The notes under the pieces are model-generated. The model worked only from the letters and a program-made list of their open reading frames with translations. It was not told the DNA's origin and ran no database searches. Positions 1,859 to 18,079 of a stretch of DNA of 64,000 bases are shown in pieces. The position numbers were made by a program, and so were the translations under genes. This DNA is from Calditrichaceae bacterium (lineage in GTDB: Bacteria > Calditrichota > Calditrichia > Calditrichales > JBFXGD01), in the NCBI GenBank assembly GCA_050173015.1, contig JBFXLE010000007.1:64001-128000 (forward strand), given 5' to 3'. The first letter of the stretch is position 1. Each line of letters begins with the position of its first letter.

Positions 1859-2001
1859 GGCGGGGTTAAAACCCGGCGGATGCCAAATGATATAACATTA
1901 AATTCCGGTTTTTGGGGAAATGTAAATTCCGATTGACAATTTGGGCTGAAGCCCACCTTCATTAGGTTTCTCTTTAACCCCCGATCTAAAGATCGGGGCT
2001 A
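1859..2001. repeat. Cluster of REP-like palindromes between convergent genes (may also act as a terminator)
   Basis: GGGTTAAAACCC; TGGGCTGAAGCCCA (1942-1955); CCCCGATCT-AA-AGATCGGGG (1979-1998) abutting the hsdS stop. Confidence 0.6.
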
Positions 2002-3399
2002 TGACACACCATTAAACGCTTCCCGTAAAACCGCCTGCATCAGTTGCCCTACCTGCGCTTTGCGGGATTTGACCTGTTTTTCCAGCACGTCGATTTTTGC
2101 CATTAGCCGGTCCACTTTTTCGACAATGGCTTGTTGTTCGGCAAGTGGTGGTAAAGCAAATACAGCATTCCTTAAAACAGATTGATTCAAATTATTCATG
2201 GTCTGCCCGATAGAATTGCATAACAATTCTTTCTGAAAATAATCTGAGATAAAACCTTGAATGAAAAAACCTTTATTTATGAAATTTGAAACTTTGATAA
2301 AAAATGAACCTGTTCCACATAGCCATCCTTTTTCATTTTCAGAAACAACGGCACATTTACTTAAATCACCACGTCTTGCTAAAACGACATCATTCATATC
2401 TAAAATATATCGAGACAAGCGGTTTTTAGTGGTCTGACTGACCATCATTTTTTTATTCGCAACTATTTGATTAGCAACAATATTCATTGGATTTACTAAT
2501 GGTATTCCATCCTGCACATAGTCTGACTTATGCAACATCGTTCCAAAAGGTCCGGTTGAAAATTTATTAATTAATCCCGTCAACCGACACCAAACCCACC
2601 CTTCCGGCAGGGTAAACGGTTTTTCTGCTTCGCTGATGGGCGGCAGTTCTTTTATTTTCTTCGTGCCCTTTGTGTCCTTTGCGAGCCTGTCTTTTTCGGC
2701 TTTGATTTTTTCCAGCAACGCTTTAGCGGAATAATTGGGATCGTTCTCACAAAGTTCACGAAGTTCACTAAGATTTTTACCGGTTTCCGCGGCCAGTTTG
2801 TTCCATTGCTGTTCACGCCATGTTGCGGTCAGTTTGCCTTCCACCGCTTCCTGTAAAATGGCCTGGCGAAGTTGTTTGAGATTGTCAGACTGTTGAGAAA
2901 TATGAAAATCAATGTCACCAATTTCATTTTCTGTTCTTTTGAAAAATTCAACGATTGATTTTTGTGTATCAATATCTGGTAAATCAATCTTTAATGGTAA
3001 TAGATGTTTTGGTTTAATTTCTGTTTTTATACCACCTTTAACCTGGTCTTTTAAAAGTTGAATGAACTTAGGACTTTTTAAAAATCGTTTAAAATATTCA
3101 ACATTAATTTTTTTATCATCAAACTGATAGGAAGAATAATGAATAGTTGCAGTAATATCGACATCACCACCGTAGACAGCCAAAGCGCCTTTTGCCACAT
3201 TTATTCCGGAAATCACAAGGTCGCCTTTTTTTGCAATAATCATATCCGTCTTTGATGATTTATCAGAAAAATGCATTCCACCAGAGAAATCGATTTTATC
3301 CAGTCTTTTTAGTTTAGATACGATCGGATCACTGGGTTTGTATTTACCGACTCGTTCTTTTAAGAATTCGCTTACTTCTGTTACTTGCCAATCAGCCAT
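1999..3399 (-). CDS. hsdS: Type I restriction-modification specificity subunit
   Basis: Two TRDs with conserved regions (LRQAILQEAVEGKLT, LLEKIKAEK, EKPFTLPEGWVWCRL, LPPLAEQQAIV, LMQAVLREAF). Confidence 0.95.
   Translation of the reverse strand: MADWQVTEVSEFLKERVGKYKPSDPIVSKLKRLDKIDFSGGMHFSDKSSKTDMIIAKKGDLVISGINVAKGALAVYGGDVDITATIHYSSYQFDDKKINVEYFKRFLKSPKFIQLLKDQVKGGIKTEIKPKHLLPLKIDLPDIDTQKSIVEFFKRTENEIGDIDFHISQQSDNLKQLRQAILQEAVEGKLTATWREQQWNKLAAETGKNLSELRELCENDPNYSAKALLEKIKAEKDRLAKDTKGTKKIKELPPISEAEKPFTLPEGWVWCRLTGLINKFSTGPFGTMLHKSDYVQDGIPLVNPMNIVANQIVANKKMMVSQTTKNRLSRYILDMNDVVLARRGDLSKCAVVSENEKGWLCGTGSFFIKVSNFINKGFFIQGFISDYFQKELLCNSIGQTMNNLNQSVLRNAVFALPPLAEQQAIVEKVDRLMAKIDVLEKQVKSRKAQVGQLMQAVLREAFNGVS
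2659..2772. repeat. Inverted pair of 9-bp-periodic arms embedded in frame in hsdS
   Basis: CTTCGTG-CC-CTTTGTG-TC-CTTTGCG-AG (2659-2685) and CT-CACAAAG-TT-CACGAAG-TT-CACTAAG (2746-2772); same unit as the hairpins flanking the GxxExxY genes. Confidence 0.8.
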
Positions 3400-3442
3400 T
3401 ATTCAACTCACTCTTCAACTGTTCCAGTAATTCATCACTTTT
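3392..3442 (-). pseudogene. Diverged duplicate of the hsdM 3' end
   Basis: Translates KSDELLEQLKSELNNG* versus the HsdM end KSDALLSQLKSELNHG* (4486-4536), 13/16 identical. Confidence 0.8.
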
Positions 3443-4493
3443 TCTTACCCCCAGAATTATCCTTACCAGGCTTTTTTCGGGGTAATTTCTTTTTCGCCGC
3501 TTCCAGTTTTTTCACCGTTTTATCAAAATCGCCATCTCTTTTATCCTTAGCAACGATACGTTGAATATTGAATTTTTCATACTCATCTTCGGCAAGGGCG
3601 GCGGCCAATTCCTGAGATATTTTTCCGGCATGGGTTAAAATATCGCGCTCATTCAATTGCAGAAAAGAATCCAGTTTTTTTCGCCAGTCGCGCATAAAAA
3701 CCTGTTTATGCCGTTTGGCCTGATCTTCGGCAAAATCCAGATACATGGTTACCACGCGGTTCAGGGCTTGCAGTTCTTCTTCATTCAAATAATTCTTGGC
3801 AATCCTTACATCGCCTTTGCGTACCTTTTCACCTTTCCATGAAGTTAACCCCATATTGGGTTTGGAAGCATCCGCGCGGTCATGTACAATTTCAGCGGCG
3901 GTTTGTCCGGAAATAGCAAAGTGCAGTTTATTTTGCACTGCCTTAAAAAACTCGGGAGTCTCTTCCGCTATGGGATCATAGTCAACCGCTAATTTGTAAA
4001 TTTCCTTTATTTTTTGATAAAAGCGCTGCTCGCTGGATCGAATATCCCTGATCCGTTCCAACAGTTCATCAAAATAATCCGAACCGATATTATGGACATT
4101 CTTCAAGCGTTCATCATCCATGGTAAATCCCTTGACCATGTACTCGTTCAAACGCGCGGTAGCCCAGCGCCGGAATTGTGTACCACGGTGCGAACGGACG
4201 CGGTAACCAATGGCGATGATCGCTTCCAGATTATAAAATTGTGTACTATAATTCTTACCATCAGCGGCAGTTGTCAAGAAATCCTTGACAACTGAATTTT
4301 CATCGAGTTCGCCTTCTTTAAAGATATTATTTATATGAAGGCTGATATTTTGCTTGGTGGTCTGAAACAATTCCGCCATTAACTTCTGTGTCAGCCAAAC
4401 CGTTTCATCCTGCAGACGCACTTCTATTTTAGTTTTACCGGATTCGGTTTGATAGATGATAATCTGCGAATCGGGTTTGTTGGTTTTAGCCAT
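3435..4493 (-). CDS. RhuM-family (virulence RhuM) DNA-binding protein
   Basis: ETVWLTQKLMAELFQ, YNLEAIIAIGYRVRSHRGTQFRRWA, EYMVKGFTMDDERLK, VQNKLHFA, IAKNYL. Confidence 0.9.
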   Translation of the reverse strand: MAKTNKPDSQIIIYQTESGKTKIEVRLQDETVWLTQKLMAELFQTTKQNISLHINNIFKEGELDENSVVKDFLTTAADGKNYSTQFYNLEAIIAIGYRVRSHRGTQFRRWATARLNEYMVKGFTMDDERLKNVHNIGSDYFDELLERIRDIRSSEQRFYQKIKEIYKLAVDYDPIAEETPEFFKAVQNKLHFAISGQTAAEIVHDRADASKPNMGLTSWKGEKVRKGDVRIAKNYLNEEELQALNRVVTMYLDFAEDQAKRHKQVFMRDWRKKLDSFLQLNERDILTHAGKISQELAAALAEDEYEKFNIQRIVAKDKRDGDFDKTVKKLEAAKKKLPRKKPGKDNSGGKKK

Positions 4494-5934
4494 GGTTCAA
4501 CTCGCTCTTTAACTGACTTAGTAACGCGTCGCTTTTTCTGAATGAATCGTGCAGCATATCCAATAATTCAGCGCTTGTGTGAGTGTGTTCTTCTTCGGCA
4601 ATATGCGGATTTTTAATATCCAGATTAAAACCATTCTTTTCTAATTCTTCAATAGAAACTTTCCAGGCCTGTTCGTTGGCTTCACGCTTTGTCCACCACC
4701 GGCGCAGATTTTCAAATTCAATTTTCTGGATCGTTTTGGTTTTAGAATAAGCCTTCATTCCTTGCGGCAGTTTATGTTCCCAATACCAGATTTCTTTGGT
4801 TGCCTGCCCGCCTGTGGTGGGGCCTTTTTCAAAAAACAACAGATTGGTTGCCACGCTGGCATAGGGTTGGAACACAGAATTAGGTAAACGCACAATGGTA
4901 TGCAGATTACATGTTTCCAGAAAATGCTGACGGATGCGCTGCTTGACGCCATCGCCGGTTAAAGATCCATCCGGCAAAACAATCGCCGCCCGACCGTTTT
5001 CTTTTAAATAGCGAATCATCAAAACCAGAAAAAGGTCGGCGCTTTCCGTGGTGCGGTAATTCTGCGGAAAATTAGTTTCCACACCATCGCTTACCGATGC
5101 CCCGAAAGGCGGATTGGCGAGAATCACATCCACACGGTCTTTATGTCCGATACCGGTGTATTCGCGATTCAGGCTGTCGATATAATCCACATTGGGCACT
5201 TCAATATCATGAAGGATCAGGTTGGTCACACACAGCATAAATGGCAGCGGCTTTAATTCCATACCGTGAATGGTGGCTTCCAGATTTTTTAAATCTTCCA
5301 CGCCTTTTACATCCTGTTTGCGGATATTCTCTATGGCACAGGTTAAAAATCCGCCGGTGCCACAGGCCGGATCCAGCACTTTTTCGCCTAAACGGGGATT
5401 GATCATTTCGGTCATAAATTCGGTTAACGCGCGGGGGGTGTAAAATTCACCGTAATTACCGGCGCTTTGCAAATCGCGTAAAATAGTTTCATAGATATCA
5501 CCAAAAACGTGGCGGTCTTCGGAACTGTTAAAATCGATTTCATTCAGTTTATTGACCACCTGGCGGATGATGGTGCCGTTCTTCATATAATTGTTGGTGC
5601 CGGAAAAGATTTCACGGACAATCAATGTTCGCTTGTTGCCATTGGAAATATCAAGATTTTTCAAGGCCGGAAACAGCGTATTGTCGATAAATTCCTGCAA
5701 CTCGATCCCGGTCATCCCTTCATCATCCGCCGCCCAGTTGCGCCATTGAATAGTTGAAGGGATTGGCGATTTATAATTTTCATTGAGCAGTTCCAGTTCC
5801 TGATCTTTATCATCCAGTATCTTGAGAGAGATCATCCAGCCTAATTGCTCGATACGCTGCGCGTCACCCGAAACGCCCGGATCTTTGCGCATGATGTTTT
5901 GAAGTGTTTTTATGATATTGCCGATATTTTTCAT
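4486..5934 (-). CDS. hsdM: Type I R-M N6-adenine DNA methyltransferase subunit
   Basis: GEFYTPR, motif I DPACGTGGF, motif IV NPPF. Confidence 0.95.
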   Translation of the reverse strand: MKNIGNIIKTLQNIMRKDPGVSGDAQRIEQLGWMISLKILDDKDQELELLNENYKSPIPSTIQWRNWAADDEGMTGIELQEFIDNTLFPALKNLDISNGNKRTLIVREIFSGTNNYMKNGTIIRQVVNKLNEIDFNSSEDRHVFGDIYETILRDLQSAGNYGEFYTPRALTEFMTEMINPRLGEKVLDPACGTGGFLTCAIENIRKQDVKGVEDLKNLEATIHGMELKPLPFMLCVTNLILHDIEVPNVDYIDSLNREYTGIGHKDRVDVILANPPFGASVSDGVETNFPQNYRTTESADLFLVLMIRYLKENGRAAIVLPDGSLTGDGVKQRIRQHFLETCNLHTIVRLPNSVFQPYASVATNLLFFEKGPTTGGQATKEIWYWEHKLPQGMKAYSKTKTIQKIEFENLRRWWTKREANEQAWKVSIEELEKNGFNLDIKNPHIAEEEHTHTSAELLDMLHDSFRKSDALLSQLKSELNHG

Positions 5935-5947
5935 GTGGTTCCCTTTA

Positions 5948-6028
5948 TACTCACTAAGTTCACGAAGGACACAAAGAAAAAATTAACTTTAAAATACTCT
6001 TTGTGATCATTGTGTGCTTCGTGAGAGT
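5948..6028. repeat. 9-bp-periodic hairpin H1
   Basis: CACTAAG-TT-CACGAAG-GA-CACAAAG, AT-rich loop, CTTTGTG-AT-CATTGTG-TG-CTTCGTG-AGAGT. Confidence 0.85.
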
Positions 6029-6409
6029 CTACAATTTTCCGTTAATGATTCGTTTTAGCCCGTTTTTTAATAACACTTCGTTAAAATTTATTACCAATCC
6101 GAGTTTTAAACCGGATAATTTCAGATAAGTTAGTGTTTGTTTGAAATGAATGTCTTCCAGTTTTTTTACCGATTTGAGTTCTAATAGAACCTCATTTCCA
6201 ACAATTATATCCGCTCTAAAACCTTTATCAAACTGCAGATTTTCATAGACGACTGGAATGTCTTTCTCTACGTCAACCGATAATCCTGCCTTATTTATCT
6301 CATAAGCTAAAACATCACGGTAAACCGATTCCAGTAAACCAGGACCCAGTTTTGTATGAACTTTTAAAGCGCATTCAATAATAATTTTAGATATTTCATT
6401 TTCATTCAT
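6029..6409 (-). CDS. GxxExxY family protein (PD-(D/E)XK nuclease fold), copy 1
   Basis: VHTKLGPGLLESVY, RADIIV...LELKS, QTLTYLK, GLVINF. Confidence 0.92.
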   Translation of the reverse strand: MNENEISKIIIECALKVHTKLGPGLLESVYRDVLAYEINKAGLSVDVEKDIPVVYENLQFDKGFRADIIVGNEVLLELKSVKKLEDIHFKQTLTYLKLSGLKLGLVINFNEVLLKNGLKRIINGKL

Positions 6410-6417
6410 TTATTCTA

Positions 6418-6497
6418 TCTCACGATGTTCACGAAGGACACAAAGAAAAAATTAACTTTAAAATACTCTTTGTGATCATTGTGTGCTTCGTGAGAGT
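6418..6497. repeat. 9-bp-periodic hairpin H2
   Basis: CACGATG-TT-CACGAAG-GA-CACAAAG ... CTTTGTG-AT-CATTGTG-TG-CTTCGTG; 469 bp from H1. Confidence 0.85.
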
Positions 6498-6878
6498 CTA
6501 CAATTTTCCGTTAATGATTCGTTTTAGCCCGTTTTTTAATAACACTTCGTTAAAATTTATTACCAATCCGAGTTTTAAACCGGATAATTTCAGATAAGTT
6601 AGTGTTTGTTTGAAATGAATGTCTTCCAGTTTTTTTACCGATTTGAGTTCTAATAGAACCTCATTTCCAACAATTATATCCGCTCTAAAACCTTTATCAA
6701 ACTGCAGATTTTCATAGACCACAGGAATGTCTTTCTCTACGTCAACCGATAATCCTGCCTTATTTATCTCATAAGCTAAAACATCACGGTAAACCGATTC
6801 CAGTAAACCAGGACCCAGTTTTGTATGAACTTTTAAAGCACATTCAATAATAATTTTAGATATTTCATTTTCATTCAT
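6498..6878 (-). CDS. GxxExxY family protein, copy 2
   Basis: Protein identical to copy 1. Confidence 0.92.
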   Translation of the reverse strand: MNENEISKIIIECALKVHTKLGPGLLESVYRDVLAYEINKAGLSVDVEKDIPVVYENLQFDKGFRADIIVGNEVLLELKSVKKLEDIHFKQTLTYLKLSGLKLGLVINFNEVLLKNGLKRIINGKL

Positions 6879-6886
6879 TTTTTCTA

Positions 6887-6966
6887 TCTCACGATGTTCA
6901 CGAAGGACACAAAGAAAAAATTAACTTTAAAATACTCTCTGTGATCATTGTGTGCTTCGTGAGAGT
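6887..6966. repeat. 9-bp-periodic hairpin H3
   Basis: As H2 but CTCTGTG (6937-6943) replaces CTTTGTG. Confidence 0.85.
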
Positions 6967-7347
6967 CTACAATTTTCCGTTAATGATTCGTTTTAGCCCG
7001 TTTTTTAATAACACTTCGTTAAAATTTATTACCAATCCGAGTTTTAAACCGGATAATTTCAGATAAGTTAGTGTTTGTTTGAAATGAATGTCTTCCAGTT
7101 TTTTTACCGATTTGAGTTCTAATAGAACCTCATTTCCAACAATTATATCCGCTCTAAAACCTTTATCAAACTGCAGATTTTCATAGACCACAGGAATGTC
7201 TTTCTCTACGTCAACCGATAATCCTGCCTTATTTATCTCATAAGCTAAAACATCACGGTAAACCGATTCCAGTAAACCAGGACCCAGTTTTGTATGAACT
7301 TTTAAAGCACATTCAATAATAATTTTAGATATTTCATTTTCATTCAT
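6967..7347 (-). CDS. GxxExxY family protein, copy 3 (start corrected to ATG at 7347)
   Basis: 126 aa identical to copies 1 and 2; the ORF-track N-terminal extension only reads through hairpin H4. Confidence 0.92.
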   Translation of the reverse strand: MNENEISKIIIECALKVHTKLGPGLLESVYRDVLAYEINKAGLSVDVEKDIPVVYENLQFDKGFRADIIVGNEVLLELKSVKKLEDIHFKQTLTYLKLSGLKLGLVINFNEVLLKNGLKRIINGKL

Positions 7348-7351
7348 TACG

Positions 7352-7431
7352 ACTCTCGCAAAGTTCACAAAGGCCACGAAGAAAAAAGATTTAACTAAAA
7401 AACTTTGTGTTCTTTGTGCGCTTAGTGAGTA
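7352..7431. repeat. 9-bp-periodic hairpin H4 (diverged)
   Basis: CGCAAAG-TT-CACAAAG-GC-CACGAAG ... CTTTGTG-TT-CTTTGTG-CG-CTTAGTG-AGTA; its outer 11 bp are a perfect inverted repeat of TACTCACTAAG at 5948-5958. Confidence 0.85.
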
Positions 7432-7432
7432 A

Positions 7433-9838
7433 CTATGCTGCTTCCTTATACAATTCTGTTTCAAGTTCTTTAATCATTTTTAGATAGCCGTTTCTACCGC
7501 CAAAAAGTTTGACGATTTCCGCGGGTGTTCCGATTTCACTAAAAGGATCAATACGTAAAACCGCTAAATCTTCGATGTTTTCAATACCTTCCGTTGCGTA
7601 TTTATCAAGCAGGGCATCAATTATATTCCTTGCCTGTTCGCCATATTTAGTAAAGTAATTGCGTTTCTTCACATTTTCAGCCCGTTCGCGCCTTGTCAGC
7701 GCGGGCATATCCCAGGCCACATGACAAATCAGATCAAATAAATCCAAATCCTTTTTAACTTCTTCTTTTAGATTTTCAAGGATAATGCCTTCGGCTTCCA
7801 GTTCATCAATCAACGCTTTTTTCTTTTCGGCGGAATTCCAGCTCGACAAGAATTCATCCAGGCTGCGATATGTTTTAAGGATGTTCCTTTTCGTATAGTC
7901 TTTCAGGCTTTCTGTAATTAATGTACCATCACCATCCAAAAATTGAACACGTTCATTAAGAACTGAAACATCTACTCCCGCCACATAGATCTTATTTCTT
8001 CGTTCAGATACAATTTCTCCGCCTGTAACAGTATGTGGTTCTCCATAATCAGCATTGTTTTCACCCTCAAAGTCAATTTCTTCTCCGGATTCTTCATCTA
8101 TAAAGTCTTCCTGTCCTTCCGGATTTATATCATCATCAGTGAGCGGTTGATCCGCGTCAACTTCTTTGACCATCACCGGATCGCCGTCAAAAGCAGGATC
8201 AGCAAATAAGTCCGTGACATTGCGGAAATCCATAATGGTAAAGTAGGTTTTATCAAATTCTTCATTGATGCGTGTGCCGCGTCCGATGATCTGCTTGAAT
8301 TCGGTCATTGATTGGATATTGGAATCCAGTACAATCAGTTTGCAGGTTTGCGCGTCCACACCGGTCGACATCAATTTGGAAGTGGTGGCAATAACCGGAT
8401 AAGTCTCTTCGGGATTGATAAAATTATCCAGTTCACGTTTTCCTTCATCCTCATCGCCGGTTATGCGCATGACATATTTATAGTTTTCCTGTACCAAATC
8501 TGTATTGAAGTTAGAGATCGCCTGACGCATGCGTTCCGCATGTTCGATATCAACGCAAAAAATAATTGTCTTGTCGAAGCGGTTCGTTTTTGTTAAAAAC
8601 TCAGTAACTTTATTGGCGACTAATTCAGTACGCGGATCGATCACCAAATTGCGGTCATAATCTTTGGTATTATATAACCGGTCTTCTATCAGATTTCCGT
8701 CTTTATCGGTTTTACCTGATTCCGGCCTCCAACCTTCCAAATCCACATTAATTCCAACACGAATCACTTTATATGGCGCCAGAAATCCATCGGAAATACC
8801 TTGTCTGAGAGAATAGGTATAAATAGGATCGCCAAAATATTCTATATTTGAAACATCTCTTGTTTCTTTTGGCGTTGCGGTTAGACCAATATGAGTTGCT
8901 GTATTAAAATATTCCAGAATTTCCCGCCAGGCGCTATCAGCGGACGCGCTTCCACGATGGCATTCATCTACAACGATCAGGTCAAAAAAGTCACGACTAA
9001 ATTCTCTGTAAGCGTCTTTATCTTCATCATAGCTTGTCAAACCCTGATACAGGGCAAGGTATATTTCAAAAGCCTTGTCAATTTGCTTTTTGCGAATAAC
9101 CGTCATGCGCTCTTTGAAATGTTTGAAATCGCCGCGCTTGGTTTGATTGATTAAAGCGTTACGGTCAGCAAGAAACAGAATGCGTTTGGCAGTTCCACTT
9201 TTCCACAGACGATAAATGATTTGAAAAGCCGCGTAGGTTTTACCCGTCCCGGTTGCCATAACGATTAGAATTCTGTTTTGTCCCCGGGCGATGGCTTCAA
9301 CTGTTCTGTTAACTGCTATTTGTTGGTAATAGCGCGGCTTTCTTCCCGAACCGTCAATGAAATAATCATGGGATGAAATACGCTCTTGTTCGCTTGTTTC
9401 AATGCCTTTGAATTTTTTATAGCGGAGCCAGAGTTCTTCCGGAGCGGGAAAATTTTCCAGAGATAACTCTGTTTCGATTTGCCCGGTAGATTTAGTTCGA
9501 TCGTGTTCCAGAAAGCCATCACCATTGGAACTATATGCAACAGGAATATCCAGAATTTCAGCATAATCCAAACCTTGCTGCATACCAGCGCCAACTGAGT
9601 GCTTATTATCTTTTGCTTCAATTACGGCAATTGGAATATTGGATTTGTAGTAAAAAATGATGTCCGCTTTTTTAGCCTTGCCGCGTTTTGTTTTGTTGCC
9701 TTTAACATAAATTCGCCCGGCTGTAAAATAGACTTCCTCCCGAACTTGCTTTTGAATATCCCAACCTGCTTTTTCCAGGTTTGGAATAATATACTTGGTG
9801 ATTATGTCTCGTTCTGTTAAATCTCTTTTTGACGTCAT
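7433..9838 (-). CDS. hsdR: Type I restriction endonuclease subunit R (EcoAI/EcoEI-like)
   Basis: Nuclease ADII..IEAK, Walker A MATGTGKT, DECH box, GLTATP, QIIGRGTR, EcoEI-like C-terminal domain. Confidence 0.95.
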   Translation of the reverse strand: MTSKRDLTERDIITKYIIPNLEKAGWDIQKQVREEVYFTAGRIYVKGNKTKRGKAKKADIIFYYKSNIPIAVIEAKDNKHSVGAGMQQGLDYAEILDIPVAYSSNGDGFLEHDRTKSTGQIETELSLENFPAPEELWLRYKKFKGIETSEQERISSHDYFIDGSGRKPRYYQQIAVNRTVEAIARGQNRILIVMATGTGKTYAAFQIIYRLWKSGTAKRILFLADRNALINQTKRGDFKHFKERMTVIRKKQIDKAFEIYLALYQGLTSYDEDKDAYREFSRDFFDLIVVDECHRGSASADSAWREILEYFNTATHIGLTATPKETRDVSNIEYFGDPIYTYSLRQGISDGFLAPYKVIRVGINVDLEGWRPESGKTDKDGNLIEDRLYNTKDYDRNLVIDPRTELVANKVTEFLTKTNRFDKTIIFCVDIEHAERMRQAISNFNTDLVQENYKYVMRITGDEDEGKRELDNFINPEETYPVIATTSKLMSTGVDAQTCKLIVLDSNIQSMTEFKQIIGRGTRINEEFDKTYFTIMDFRNVTDLFADPAFDGDPVMVKEVDADQPLTDDDINPEGQEDFIDEESGEEIDFEGENNADYGEPHTVTGGEIVSERRNKIYVAGVDVSVLNERVQFLDGDGTLITESLKDYTKRNILKTYRSLDEFLSSWNSAEKKKALIDELEAEGIILENLKEEVKKDLDLFDLICHVAWDMPALTRRERAENVKKRNYFTKYGEQARNIIDALLDKYATEGIENIEDLAVLRIDPFSEIGTPAEIVKLFGGRNGYLKMIKELETELYKEAA

Positions 9839-10070: not shown

Positions 10071-11003
10071 ATTACTTGAATAAATCAACAACTTCTTTTG
10101 CAGATAACAATTTTTCATAAGAGGTGTATCTCGGGCTCTGCAAAATTCCCTGCTTTGCTCTGCCATATTTTATAGGCCCAATTGGTTTTGCTGGTGCAAT
10201 AAAATTCAATTTATATTTTCCACCATCCCCATAAGGTTCAATAGACTCAACTTCAGCGTAATGCGTCACTGCTGAAATAGGAGCAGTTTGATATGCGGCT
10301 ATGTATTTAATTTCATTTAGTTTTCCACCACCAATTCTAATTGCCCACCAGCAGTTTTCACCAATGAAAACATCTTTAAACCCATCTTCCTGTGCAGGAA
10401 CGATAATAGTATCTTGCAACCCCTTTTTCTTTATTATATTCTGTGGATGAGACGCAACTTCAATTTTCTTGCCCTTTTCAAACACTCTAATTTCAACCAA
10501 AGGCAGAATGCTCAAAATCTCATTAAGAAATTCCTGTGTATCAGCTCGCTCTGCTTCTGTTAATACAGGTTCATTCGGGGTTGCATTATTATCTAATTTT
10601 GATCTGCCAATACTTTTTGCTCTATCAATCAAAGCCCACTCAAGCCAAGTAATGTGTGCCCGATTAAGCCCCCCATTACTTGAGACAAAGATCAAAACTT
10701 TATCCCAGAACTCTTTATTCTTCTCGTGAGAATCAATTCGGTTTCTTACACCGTCCCCCTGACCAATGTAAAGGGTTGGGAGATCATCACCTTCCTGATA
10801 TCCAAAGAGAATATAGGCACCGGCTTGGTCAAGTTCCTTTCTGTTTCTATACTTATCCCAGTTATCTCTTGAAATTTCCAATCCAATACCAGTCCAATTC
10901 ATTTTATCAATAATTTTAAATGTATTTGGGTCCCCATCGGGAACAAATAAACGAATAGTGTAAGGTTTCGACATTTATTTTACCTCAAAATTATAATGCA
11001 TAA
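9947..11003 (-). mobile_element. Integron-type gene cassette carrying the GIY-YIG nuclease gene
   Basis: Starts at G|TTATGC (11004-10998), which is complementary to the attC R'' GCATAAC; single ORF with RBS GAGGT and no room for a promoter; ends in attC. Confidence 0.75.
10072..10974 (-). CDS. GIY-YIG nuclease with a C-terminal putative PUA/EVE-like domain
   Basis: GAYILFG...LYIGQG..VRNRIDSH...WLE; C-terminal DTIIVPA...WWAIRI...YIAAYQTAPISAVTHYAEVESIEP. Confidence 0.8.
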   Translation of the reverse strand: MSKPYTIRLFVPDGDPNTFKIIDKMNWTGIGLEISRDNWDKYRNRKELDQAGAYILFGYQEGDDLPTLYIGQGDGVRNRIDSHEKNKEFWDKVLIFVSSNGGLNRAHITWLEWALIDRAKSIGRSKLDNNATPNEPVLTEAERADTQEFLNEILSILPLVEIRVFEKGKKIEVASHPQNIIKKKGLQDTIIVPAQEDGFKDVFIGENCWWAIRIGGGKLNEIKYIAAYQTAPISAVTHYAEVESIEPYGDGGKYKLNFIAPAKPIGPIKYGRAKQGILQSPRYTSYEKLLSAKEVVDLFK

Positions 11004-11365: not shown

Positions 11366-11483
11366 AATCCCGAAGGGATTACACGTTAATAGAAAAACAG
11401 ACCCCACATCATCTGCGACCCCGTGGGGGTCGAACTATTACGGCGGAAATCCTATTCTACTAAGCTGTGACACCTCCGGCGTC
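11366..11483. repeat. REP/MITE-like palindrome cluster (IS200/RAYT-associated style)
   Basis: AATCCCGAAGGGATT (11366-11380), CGACCCCGTGGGGGTCG (11416-11432), GACACCTCCGGCGTC (11469-11483). Confidence 0.6.
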
Positions 11484-12216: not shown

Positions 12217-12387
12217 TTCCCGGCCTAAAATAACGTCTCCCCTCTGTATATTTATGCGCCCCTCTTATGATTTACCCTTCCCGCTGCATATTTATGCGCT
12301 CCCGCTAAATTTTTTGGCTTCCCGCTGAATATTTATGCATCCCGTCAGGGGTTTTTAGCTTCCCGCTCCATTTTGACACGTCCCGTC
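12217..12387. repeat. Degenerate 20-21 bp tandem repeat array (~9 units)
   Basis: CCCG/CCCC at 12219, 12239, 12259, 12280, 12301, 12321, 12341, 12362, 12382; CTGnATATTTATGC recurs at 12244, 12284, 12325. Confidence 0.7.
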
Positions 12388-12602
12388 ACGGGTTTGCGGG
12401 ACAAATGCTATCCGGGCCGCTAAAATCTTTCATCGGGACGGAAAAGTTAACCGGTTGGAATTTTGCAACAGATAAAATCATTTACACTATTGATTCGTTA
12501 AGGATCAAATCGTTCGATTTTGATTGACTTAGTGAATGCTAATAACTTAACTTGTCACCTTCTAAAATAATGTACAGTTTAAAATAAAGGCGGGGATCAA
12601 TA

Positions 12603-16113: not shown

Positions 16114-17544
16114 ATGACAACCTCCATTCAAAACACTATTATCAGGCTCTTTGAAGACTGGGCGAATGAACCTCATTTAAAGATATATCAACTTCCGAGA
16201 CAGGGATCCGACCGGCAGTACTTCCGCGTTTCCGGCGATAAAAAAACAGCCATCGGAGTGTATAATCCTGATCGTAAAGAAAACACCGCCTTTATCAGTT
16301 TTTCAGAACATTTTTTATCCAAAGGGTTAAATGTCCCCGAAATTTATTCTCAGAATTCAGATAAAAACAGTTATCTCATTCAGGATCTGGGCGACACCAC
16401 TCTCTTTTCATATCTGACAACCAGTCGGGAAACCGACGTGTTTCCACAACCCTTGATGAGCCTTTACAAAAAAGTAATCGACGCGCTTCCCCGATTCCAG
16501 ATCGAGGGCGGCAGAGAAATCGATTACGGTCTCTGCTATCCCCGAAGCAGCTTCGACAGACAATCGATGATGTGGGATCTTAACTATTTTAAATATTATT
16601 TTTTAAAATTGGCAAAAATCCCCTTTGATGAACAGAATCTCGAAGACGATTTTCTTAAATTTACAGATTATTTACTCGAAGCGGATCATGACTATTTTAT
16701 GTACCGGGATTTCCAGTCACGCAATATCATGATCCGGGATGATGAGCCTTTTTTTATTGATTATCAGGGCGGCAGAAAGGGCCCGCTTCAATATGATCTG
16801 GCTTCGCTCCTGTATGACGCGAAAGCCGATCTGCCAAATGAAATCCGTCAGGAGTTGCTTGAGCGGTATATGGAAACTATCGGACAACTTATTAAGTTTG
16901 ACCGCGATAAATTTCTACGGCATTATTACGGTTTTGTTCTCATCCGTATTATGCAGGCATTGGGGGCCTATGGATTTCGGGGATTCTATGAACGCAAAGA
17001 ACATTTTCTGCAAAGCGTCCCCTATGCTATTCAAAATCTCGAATGGATTCTTCGCAATACAGATCTTCCGGCCGGGATCCCGGAGCTCAAAAACGCCTGG
17101 GAACAAATGGTCCAGACCGCTGAACTGCGTCAGTTCGGACACGCGCATTTGCATCTGAATGTACGGGTACAAAGTTTTTCATACAGACGGGGGATCCCAC
17201 TGGATGAAAAAGGAAACGGCGGCGGATTTGTTTTTGACTGCCGGCTACTGCCCAATCCGGGGAGATATGATGAATATAAAGAACTGACCGGGAATGATCC
17301 TGAAGTCATTGCATTTCTGGAAAAAAAAGATGAAGTCTCATCTTTTCTGTCACAATTAAAAACGGTGATTGACCAGGCCGTTGAATCCTATCAAAAACAA
17401 AATTATACGGATTTGATGATCGCCTTCGGTTGTACCGGAGGGCAGCACCGATCGGTTTATTGCGCGAATCAGATGACCGCGCATCTCAGAGAAAAATATA
17501 ATATCAGCGTTGATCTGAGACACCGGGAGCAGGAGAGGAAGTAG
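16114..17544 (+). CDS. AmgK-like MurNAc/GlcNAc kinase (APH fold) fused to a RapZ C-terminal domain
   Basis: GSDRQYFR, QDLGD, YRDFQSRNIM, IDYQGG; C-terminal SFSYRRGIP, FVFDCRLLPNP, GCTGGQHRSV; ATG start at 16114 preferred. Confidence 0.85.
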   Translation: MTTSIQNTIIRLFEDWANEPHLKIYQLPRQGSDRQYFRVSGDKKTAIGVYNPDRKENTAFISFSEHFLSKGLNVPEIYSQNSDKNSYLIQDLGDTTLFSYLTTSRETDVFPQPLMSLYKKVIDALPRFQIEGGREIDYGLCYPRSSFDRQSMMWDLNYFKYYFLKLAKIPFDEQNLEDDFLKFTDYLLEADHDYFMYRDFQSRNIMIRDDEPFFIDYQGGRKGPLQYDLASLLYDAKADLPNEIRQELLERYMETIGQLIKFDRDKFLRHYYGFVLIRIMQALGAYGFRGFYERKEHFLQSVPYAIQNLEWILRNTDLPAGIPELKNAWEQMVQTAELRQFGHAHLHLNVRVQSFSYRRGIPLDEKGNGGGFVFDCRLLPNPGRYDEYKELTGNDPEVIAFLEKKDEVSSFLSQLKTVIDQAVESYQKQNYTDLMIAFGCTGGQHRSVYCANQMTAHLREKYNISVDLRHREQERK

Positions 17545-17579
17545 GAAGTAGGAAGTAGGAAGTAAGAAGTAGGAAGTAA
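17538..17579. repeat. Heptamer tandem repeat (GAAGTAR)6
   Basis: Six units; the first supplies the TAG stop of the upstream gene. Confidence 0.9.
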
Positions 17580-17786
17580 GAATTTTAAGAAAAAAGATAA
17601 AAGAAAAAAGAGTAGAGGTGCAGCACACATGGGCCGCCCGGGCATATTCACGACAGGCCACCATACTTGTCATCCTGGAAGGATCTTTTGCTTTCTCGGT
17701 TGATTCTGTGGTAAATCCCAAATTAACTGACGCGATTCTTCGGGGCGAATTTTCTGTTAAAGCTAAAGCATTAACCCTCCCCTCGA

Positions 17787-17814: not shown

Positions 17815-17871
17815 AGGGCATGATTTATCAGGCCCGGGGTGGGTTAGAAGAAGCTAAAAGTAAGAAAAAGG

Positions 17872-17907
17872 ATAAAAGAAAAAAGAAAAAAGAAAAAAGA
17901 AAAAAGA
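17872..17907. repeat. Heptamer tandem repeat (AAAAAAG)n
   Basis: Seen directly; a similar run lies at ~17589-17610. Confidence 0.8.
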
Positions 17908-18079
17908 GTTAAGAGAAAATAGTGTAAGAGTTTTTGATAATACCGTTTTGATGCGTTGTTTTTGCAGTAATGAGTTAATGCATCTCATTCCGATGCTTCA
18001 ATTTTTGAGGGAGAGTGAAATTTTAAGTTCTTAAAACTCGGCAAAAATGTGATTAAAGAAGAAGGCTAAAACTTAATCA

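Follow-up and report, generated by a model that had tools for sequence, protein, structure and literature searches.

INTRODUCTION

Two described partnerships between a nuclease and a family of hairpin repeats come closest to the locus presented here. Ssn nucleases occur with NTS/SRM repeats, and the available text of Chenal et al. 2025 (PMC11893778) places an SRM near 71% of ssnA homologs. REPtrons combine the TnpA-REP/RAYT enzyme with REP/BIME palindromes (PMC3333891, PMC3733652). The GxxExxY proteins (PDDEXK_3/PF13366/TIGR04256) are, in the available part of PMC3424549, listed with function "Unknown" and with multiple transfers, and flanking repeats, mobility, and two-domain fusions go unmentioned there. 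They form a very large family (14,268 clusters at 50% identity, E up to 1e-10) with no assigned function and no close solved structure. Here we describe a block of GxxExxY genes and hairpins inserted between hsdR and hsdM of a type I restriction-modification (R-M) operon. It lies at positions 5948 to 7431 of a 64,000-nucleotide (nt) stretch of a Calditrichaceae bacterium (contig JBFXLE010000007.1, positions 64,001 to 128,000), termed the window herein, and was singled out by a first-pass annotation made from the letters alone. The reading that we favor, with reasonable though not high confidence, is that the block represents a widespread partnership of nuclease and repeat, one copy of which was inserted here and duplicated between its hairpins, the enzyme nicking the repeat arms and host synthesis copying arms and gene. 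The unit is probably a small DNA element of the selfish kind; the tandem itself is ordinary, and the partnership of gene and repeat is widespread and appears to be unstudied.

RESULTS

GxxExxY genes alternate with hairpins between hsdR and hsdM

Tandem Repeats Finder reported a repeat of period 469 with 3.0 copies and a 99% match at 5950 to 7348 of the window. Within it, three minus-strand open reading frames (ORFs) encode identical GxxExxY products of 126 amino acids (aa), and hairpins start at 5950, 6419, 6888, and 7355, at spacings of 469, 469, and 467 bp, in agreement with the alternation of hairpin and gene at a 469-bp period given in the first-pass annotation. The features of the block and its flanks are as follows, in order of transcription.

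7433 to 9838, minus strand: hsdR, type I restriction subunit, upstream flank (profile matches).
7355 to 7431, minus strand: hairpin A, adjoining hsdR; its left arm holds one half of an 11-bp terminal inverted repeat and is followed by a 21-nt AT-rich loop and the right arm.
6967 to 7347, minus strand: GxxExxY gene copy 3, transcribed first, 126 aa (TIGR04256 and PF13366 matches).
6888 to 6963, minus strand: internal hairpin at the junction of copies 3 and 2, a mosaic of downstream and upstream hairpin types; junction found in sequencing runs X1 and X3 (see below).
6498 to 6878, minus strand: GxxExxY gene copy 2 (ORF and translation).
6419 to 6494, minus strand: internal hairpin at the junction of copies 2 and 1 (repeat analysis, folding, read runs).
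6029 to 6409, minus strand: GxxExxY gene copy 1, with three synonymous differences from copies 2 and 3.
5948 to 6025, minus strand: hairpin adjoining hsdM, with a body of the internal type; its outer arm end completes the 11-bp inverted repeat.
4486 to 5934, minus strand: hsdM methyltransferase, downstream flank (profile matches).

Each hairpin is an imperfect palindrome of three 7-mers at a 9-bp period, a 21- to 22-nt AT-rich loop, and a mirror arm. The three-unit periodic arms and AT-rich loop had been recognized before, but the exact unit CACnAAG did not hold up, the arms following the degenerate form CRCnAWG. A single change distinguishes a hairpin of copy 3. The block is bounded, as the annotation said, by a perfect 11-bp inverted repeat (5948 to 5958 and 7421 to 7431), and the pairing of outer ends proved to be a real feature of the class across inserts (see below). 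The block also lies where the annotation had it inserted, between the end of hsdR (7433; EcoAI/FtnUII family, NF046051) and the start of hsdM (5934), all genes being co-oriented and followed by a RhuM gene and hsdS. When up to two mismatches were allowed, the three-unit 9-bp arm was found at 10 sites in the 4.34-Mb genome, 8 in the array and 2 in hsdS, and at none in a 2-Mb Markov control; since all 10 lie in the operon and the control has none, the hairpins are not due to chance. Exact matches to the arm pattern number only 5 in this genome, and the three array genes are its sole GxxExxY copies.

The block occupies an optional site

To place the block among related operons, the best 80 of 317 HsdM relatives were scanned; the junction was scorable in 59, and 21 were left out where hsdR was missing upstream or the sequence ended too soon. 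With a stop-to-start distance within 13 nt counted as empty, 39 of the 59 junctions are empty, 7 hold GxxExxY (one truncated), 4 hold arms only, and 9 hold other inserts, several of which belong to other palindrome families. The closest operons (L055, L056, and L058; 87 to 93% in HsdM) are all empty. Judged from these alignments, the empty alleles, for which the annotation had suggested a search, show the block to be an optional insertion between the hsdR stop and the hsdM start.

The same counts tell against a proposal made in the annotation, that the array is a dosage-amplified accessory nuclease of the R-M system, which we consider very improbable. The genes are indeed co-oriented within the operon, their clade is enriched at this junction, and duplicates stay intact (in L032, 14 synonymous and 4 nonsynonymous changes), but 52 of the 59 scorable operons do without GxxExxY, sister genes lie at nondefense loci, tandems also occur at non-R-M loci, and PADLOC, searched for a known antiphage system, has no family for the array gene at E 0.01.

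The filled or empty state changes 11 times on the 66-row hsdM tree, against a shuffled mean of 15.3, and the two states alternate. Five junction GxxExxY genes form a clade (99/92), and their hsdM sequences are rejected as one (approximately unbiased test, P = 0.0001). This discordance would suit a homing-like re-invasion, in which the nuclease would cleave incoming DNA or hsdR-hsdM alleles that are empty and the element would be copied in during repair, related genes thus colonizing one junction repeatedly, as would the fact that the window's closest hsdR/hsdM relatives are empty alleles (proportion of synonymous differences, 0.42 to 0.64) and not filled ones (0.59 to 0.79; one 16-codon comparison left out). 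Repeated loss by allele exchange gives the same pattern, however, and unrelated palindromic elements at the same junction may mean simply that the site is tolerated, so that we think homing improbable. A co-conversion comparison gave 0.84 versus 0.79 for the first 30 nt of hsdM; its hsdR half was misregistered and is invalid.

Unrelated palindrome families occupy the same junction in L062, L070, L099, L051, L053, L054, L127, and L075, and in L075 a GxxExxY gene is broken by another palindromic insert. The hsdR-hsdM junction is a general hot spot for inserts. One further candidate, L147, was dropped as an R-M junction locus, its hsdM being distant (27%).

Gene and arm type go together across genomes

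GxxExxY genes were found in 39 of 41 genomes sampled around the source organism. A motif-free inverted-repeat score of at least 24 was reached by 78 of 126 GxxExxY flanks versus 12 of 105 flanks of other ORFs at the same loci, which bears out the suggested co-occurrence of hairpins and GxxExxY genes. Arm classes, which were defined after the flanks had been viewed and label 147 of 170 genes (23 are without an arm type), change 12 times on the gene tree, compared with 40 to 42 times in the five shuffles listed. The window's gene belongs to a clade of 8 (99/98) that takes in two genes at unrelated loci, and sister genes with 80 to 82% identity lie at non-R-M loci. The arrangement of arms varies freely (left-gene-right, hairpin-gene-hairpin, right-gene-right, and others). 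For the outermost arm 7-mers, pairing is perfect in 10 of 13 junction inserts, a set that includes two near duplicates, versus 18% of 156 cross-pairs; the pairing includes locus-specific variants and extends 2 to 6 bp outward.

The arm pattern was matched in 23 of the 41 genomes, with up to 168 matches and at most 1 in the control, and in some relatives the arm thus appears as a dispersed REP-like family. Gene-less derivatives were found at L072, L108, and L059. Gene-less arm clusters with periods near 110 to 125 and 257 bp, resembling BIME-like local amplification, were seen in G016, G010, G040, and G025. No GxxExxY match was found in 50,697 phage records; 8 were found among 72,556 plasmid records, and viral contigs yielded 2 loci, both arm-flanked. 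Carriage by phage or plasmid is therefore not the usual route.

The protein is predicted to be a PD-(D/E)XK nuclease

The array protein scores 137.7 bits against TIGR04256 (cutoff, 35) and 132.9 bits against PF13366 (cutoff, 22), contains the GxxExxY motif, and has PF13366 as its sole Pfam match, with no GIY-YIG domain. Its predicted structure (mean predicted local distance difference test [pLDDT], 95.9) has a restriction-endonuclease-like fold, with the best VIA Z score, 8.8, to 3ijm (root mean square deviation of 3.1 over 100 aligned residues) and further scores of 8.3 to Cas4 (4ic1) and 6.9 to Hjc. Foldseek gave no match under E 0.001, and a sequence search of the PDB gave none. From the profile scores and the model, the protein is a bona fide member of the GxxExxY family and has the PD-(D/E)XK fold, as the annotation had stated for this family of small proteins, and nuclease activity is predicted. 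Residues E27, D67, K79, and Q91 are invariant in 52 sequences, and E77 and Y95 are at least 90% conserved; we take E27, D67, E77xK79, and Q91xxxY95 to be the PD-(D/E)XK active-site motifs. The ratio of nonsynonymous to synonymous rates (dN/dS) is 0.035 to 0.10 in 8 pairs, indicating strong purifying selection.

The best 150 of 33,429 representatives include 15 two-domain fusions (P0001 to P0009, P0013, P0014, P0019, P0025, P0027, and P0056). Domain 1 keeps E27, D67, E77, K79, and Q91 in all 15, and domain 2 keeps these residues in 1, 3, 0, 1, and 5 of 15, respectively, while retaining G22, G24, Y30, N108, and F109 in 15 of 15. The combination of an active domain 1 with a degenerate domain 2 marks the catalytic set, and it suggests a pseudo-dimer of one active and one inactive half that would cut one strand, i.e., a nickase. 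The model of fusion P0003 (pLDDT, 89.8; predicted template modeling score, 0.79) matched solved structures one domain at a time only. A homodimer prediction scored 0.00, which is evidence neither for nor against a dimer. In P0147 and P0109, GxxExxY is fused in frame behind another domain (presumably Nudix-like in P0147, to go by its motif), with a linker that reads like translated arms.

The hairpins show no sign of acting as RNA

As single-stranded DNA, the hairpins gave folding z scores of -1.4 to -3.8 in six folds, and folding is plausible. RNAalifold returned a weak, shifted structure. In 49 arm pairs, taken from the 62 of 103 loci at which the pattern caught arms, transcribed-strand mismatches comprised 38 G-T and 34 A-C, and the 2-nt spacers are mostly unpaired; with no G-T excess and mostly unpaired spacers, there is no sign of RNA structure. 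An intervening sequence (IVS) at the RNA level, whose outer arms would pair in the transcript and whose stem would be processed as in 23S rRNA, is accordingly hard to credit. The perfect pairing of the outer arms does resemble an IVS terminal stem as described in the available text of PMC4990558, but besides the mismatch counts, Rfam has no match in the array (one chance match lies elsewhere), and the insert sits in mRNA between genes.

The tandem is present in sequencing reads

Four sequencing runs (X1 to X4) were compared over window positions 5000 to 6445; X1 may be the source sample. The head-to-tail junction was recovered in two of the four, as a contig in X1 and as a joint back by 469 bp in X3, which comes from another study; an assembly artifact as the source of the tandem is thereby ruled out, the third copy aside. 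The ratios of gene to flank depth were 2.32 and 2.11 and those of junction to flank depth 1.13 and 1.12 (X1 and X3, respectively), where 2.0 and 1.0 are expected for two copies and about 2.8 and 1.3 for three, contig depth being a poor measure of copy number. There are thus at least two copies in two studies, and the depths suggest about two; three are unconfirmed, and a mixture is possible. Of the three copies that the annotation had counted, then, the tandem junction stands, and the exact number of three lacks independent confirmation, the depths lying nearer two.

An unbranched contig of X2 leads from hsdR into the gene, which is compatible with one copy; cover there is thin and interrupted at the hairpin, and X4 has too little depth. 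A different hairpin lies next to hsdM in X3 and X4. The three synonymous variants of copy 1 are each found in X2 or X3, indicating alleles that circulate among strains.

The tandem probably arose between hairpins

The relative L135 has a single GxxExxY gene with two hairpins on each side. The internal hairpin of the window starts like the first downstream hairpin of L135 and ends like its second upstream hairpin, and its loop is 95% like that of the first upstream hairpin, H1. Such a mosaic marks a downstream-to-upstream join, as expected of unequal exchange or template switching between repeats. The loop of hairpin A equals that of L135 H2 at 20 of 21 positions (by eye from the alignment), and the terminal hairpin of X3 and X4 agrees with the last L135 hairpin, H4, at 14 of the 18 sites that vary; the window's strain has lost this terminal type, which the internal one has overwritten. 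On these comparisons, recombination from hairpin to hairpin, an ordinary repeat-mediated duplication, accounts best for the tandem. Between the window and L135 (positions 262 to 462), the AT-rich loops share 95% identity although synonymous sites of gene and flank differ at 64 to 71%, which reflects either constraint or slow change of AT-rich DNA.

Adjacent gene copies occur in 4 of the 39 GxxExxY-bearing genomes, so tandems are a minority. In L031, the spacer between two identical copies (positions 780 to 900) was copied from the final 41 nt of the host gene upstream and has since diverged; this suggests an old duplication whose copies conversion has kept identical. The L032 pair lies in a one-contig genome, and in L033 a deleted copy stands beside a full one. 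Two full copies were not seen among the tblastn matches listed for 80 metagenome loci. The annotation had proposed a minimal mobile, amplifying unit analogous to RAYT/REP. A nuclease gene with a cognate palindrome of REP/RAYT style that colonized an R-M operon is retained from this, but the 469-bp unit as an autonomous module is weakened by the mosaic hairpin and by the low share of tandems.

Arms are also found in frame inside hsdS

Two further arms, overlooked in the first-pass annotation, lie within the operon's hsdS gene.

3435 to 4493, minus strand: RhuM-family gene within the operon (PF13310; PADLOC PDC-S05).
1999 to 3399, minus strand: hsdS specificity subunit with two in-frame arms in its central region (profile matches, arm scan).
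2748 to 2772, minus strand: right-type arm in frame in hsdS (LSELRELCE), lying within an 18-aa expansion.
2659 to 2683, minus strand: left-type arm in frame in hsdS (AKDTKGTK), in place of a native stretch similar in length; also in the G032 ortholog.

The central HsdS region spans 61 to 77 aa in 31 of 36 aligned segments (mostly 76 to 77) and is longer, through in-frame arms, in the window (94 aa), L069 (96 aa), and L072 (100 aa); in all three, the arm type in hsdS is that of the operon's own junction. With one duplicate merged, arms in the hsdS linker were found in 4 of 8 element-bearing versus 0 of 26 other operons (P = 0.0015), and the arm-bearing hsdS operons represent three or more independent lineages. 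This reflects either local spread of the arms or an origin of such operons in donors rich in arms. L102 and L119 have in-frame 8- to 9-aa inserts of a different palindrome type in the same HsdS region.

A proposed course of events and the points against it

We propose that a GxxExxY gene with palindromic arms was inserted between the hsdR stop and the hsdM start, and that a head-to-tail duplication followed, by recombination or by template switching between the hairpins that flank the gene. The array would still expand, contract, and be homogenized; that it is still dynamic is indicated indirectly by the mosaic junction hairpin, the strain differences, and the depths. The enzyme, a probable dimer in which one active site works, would bind the inverted 7-mer arrays and nick at or near the extruded hairpin or single-stranded DNA. 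Hydrolytic PD-(D/E)XK enzymes are not known to form a covalent intermediate. As the enzyme is without a tyrosine for strand transfer, host polymerase and recombination would have to copy from the 3'-OH. Copying would write arms into new tolerated sites, i.e., stop/start junctions and in-frame hsdS loops, would occasionally move the gene, and would make the locus recombinogenic, with the R-M operon as host site and vehicle and not as functional partner. Alignments and trees establish the insertion at an optional site, the partnership of gene and arm type, the paired termini, the remodeling by recombination, and, as far as conservation tells, an intact active site. From these we infer that the enzyme may recognize and nick its own arms, with host copying to follow.

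Several observations weigh against this proposal. Covariation in the local hairpins does not exceed that in shuffles (395 of 500), and they may be double-stranded operator arrays and not folded structures. Comparison of filled with empty junctions by eye revealed no target-site duplication and no fixed ends. The window's genome is without any arm outside the operon and so shows no genome-wide spread. Agreement of arm type with the gene tree can come from physical linkage alone, as a joint phylogeny does not prove coevolution, and 11 of 13 genes of the window's clade lie at R-M junctions, a biased count because most were found through hsdM. In close pairs, finally, the synonymous divergence of the gene keeps step with that of hsdR/hsdM, so inheritance is mostly vertical; at longer scale, repeated gain or allele exchange at the junction seems to be superimposed on it.

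Some of these points would equally suit a passive passenger, i.e., a gene with a host function unrelated to the arms (repair or defense), arms that are independent REP-like repeats or operator sites, and a neutral tandem. The strong purifying selection, the vertical codivergence with the flanks, the lack of covariation in local hairpins, and the 23 of 170 genes without an arm type under the patterns used all agree with this, as does the finding, in the available text of PMC1428787, that a minority of E. coli duplication joints lie at REP-type repeats. We nevertheless consider a passenger unlikely: arm type is clade specific across unrelated loci, the outermost arms covary across the insert, hsdS arms occur only where the junction carries the element, and comparison with clean empty junctions shows gene and arms to come and go as one.

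Returning to the nicking proposal, a stronger form of it would make the element a third nuclease-repeat system beside RAYT/REP and Ssn/SRM, in which an asymmetric-dimer PD-(D/E)XK nickase re-invades junctions, amplifies itself, and rewrites loops of neighbors such as the HsdS linker. We put this forward tentatively, as the less probable outcome. If true, the rewritten loops would possibly alter R-M specificity or expression. If the arms are the substrate, a family of unknown function gains a testable one; hairpin-nuclease partnerships would then have a third nuclease fold, many 126-aa site-specific nickases of differing specificity would exist, and, for uncultured bacteria, a class of palindromic repeats and of peptides inserted in frame would be explained. 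The locus is a convenient test bed, since alleles with no, one, two, or three copies exist, as do hsdS alleles modified by arms.

Other features of the window

A 300-aa gene upstream of hsdR (10072 to 10974) matches the PADLOC candidate PDC-S14; together with RhuM/PDC-S05, it makes the block at about 2 to 12.5 kb a lower-GC defense island. The gene-poor gap upstream of the operon contains a decayed palindromic stretch (11370 to 11480) that, by eye, is like a transposase-associated REP cluster, and a degenerate 20/41-bp tandem repeat lies intergenically at 12240 to 12395. Tandem repeats of 7 bp at 17536 to 17582 and 17862 to 17930 flank a short minus-strand ORF region (17356 to 17721), possibly another repeat-flanked mini-element. 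HsdM has a short insert, PTTGGQA, after FFEKG (4792 to 4827, minus strand) that is absent from the homologs scanned; it looks like a relic of another palindrome family and has no second copy in the genome. A sigma-70-like site (11/12) directed toward hsdM in each gene copy (6204 to 6231, 6673 to 6700, and 7142 to 7169) is multiplied by the amplification of the array and was dismissed as chance, being present in 1 of 170 homologs. The window contains no tRNA.

DISCUSSION

The element is not an insertion sequence (IS), an integron array, or an rRNA IVS, given that no transposase and no integron integrase were found and that it does not lie in rRNA. With IS and their miniature derivatives (MITEs) and with the Rickettsia palindromic element it shares paired termini, gene-less derivatives, and in-frame protein insertions, as the available text of PMC10969869 describes them; it differs in having no transposase family match, target duplication, or fixed ends. 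For the integron integrase TIGR02249, nine weak matches were obtained, none over the cutoff and none on contig C7 (genome 97% complete). By eye, the hairpin feet end in CTC/GAG and differ from the cores of integron attC sites, which we take to be AAC/GTT. ORF-bearing 23S rRNA IVSs likewise hold an ORF within a long terminal stem and are sporadically distributed, according to the available part of PMC4990558, but the array lies outside rRNA, encodes a nuclease fold instead of a four-helix bundle, and shows no wobble bias on the RNA strand.

What is new at this locus is a gene-bearing tandem with read support, the mosaic junction, the association with hsdS, the covarying termini, and the fusions of active and dead domains. 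No paper linking GxxExxY to repeats was found in a search that covered little of the subscription journals and supplements; the supplements of PMC11893778 and PMC3733652 could list repeats of this type.

The likeness to REPtrons is close. On the available text of PMC3333891 and PMC3733652, these have a gene amid variable numbers of imperfect palindromes in mixed orientation, strain-variable and locally amplified tandem clusters, conserved stem mismatches, and in-frame repeats in ORFs; dispersed and clustered gene-less palindromes, when looked for, were likewise present here (23 of 41 genomes). RAYT, however, is an HUH Y1 enzyme able to carry out strand transfer, and the array protein has no HUH Y1 match. 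REPs are described in the same sources as carrying GTAG/CGTC tags, which the hairpins here do not have in that sense: of 15 hairpins aligned, only 5 have GTAG before the arm, by eye always from the gene's last codon plus stop. REPtrons are also reported, in the text available, not to move as a unit, whereas the GxxExxY gene and its arms occupy many sites and the gene is copied in tandem.

With Ssn/SRM, as far as the available text of PMC11893778 goes, the element shares a gene for a small nuclease of one domain with hairpin repeats of its own on both sides, repeat variants that pair with protein clades, repeats that can be dispersed in the genome, and an enzyme that is a hydrolytic nuclease and no transposase. 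Ssn proteins are GIY-YIG enzymes and the array protein is PD-(D/E)XK (PF13366); Ssn repeats are described there as single hairpins of 20 to 50 nt, and those of the array are 75-bp inverted arrays of three 7-mers at a 9-bp period; cleavage by Ssn is reported as proven, whereas that by the array nuclease is predicted. By analogy, then, the element would work like Ssn/SRM and RAYT/REP-BIME and departs from both in the fold of its enzyme.

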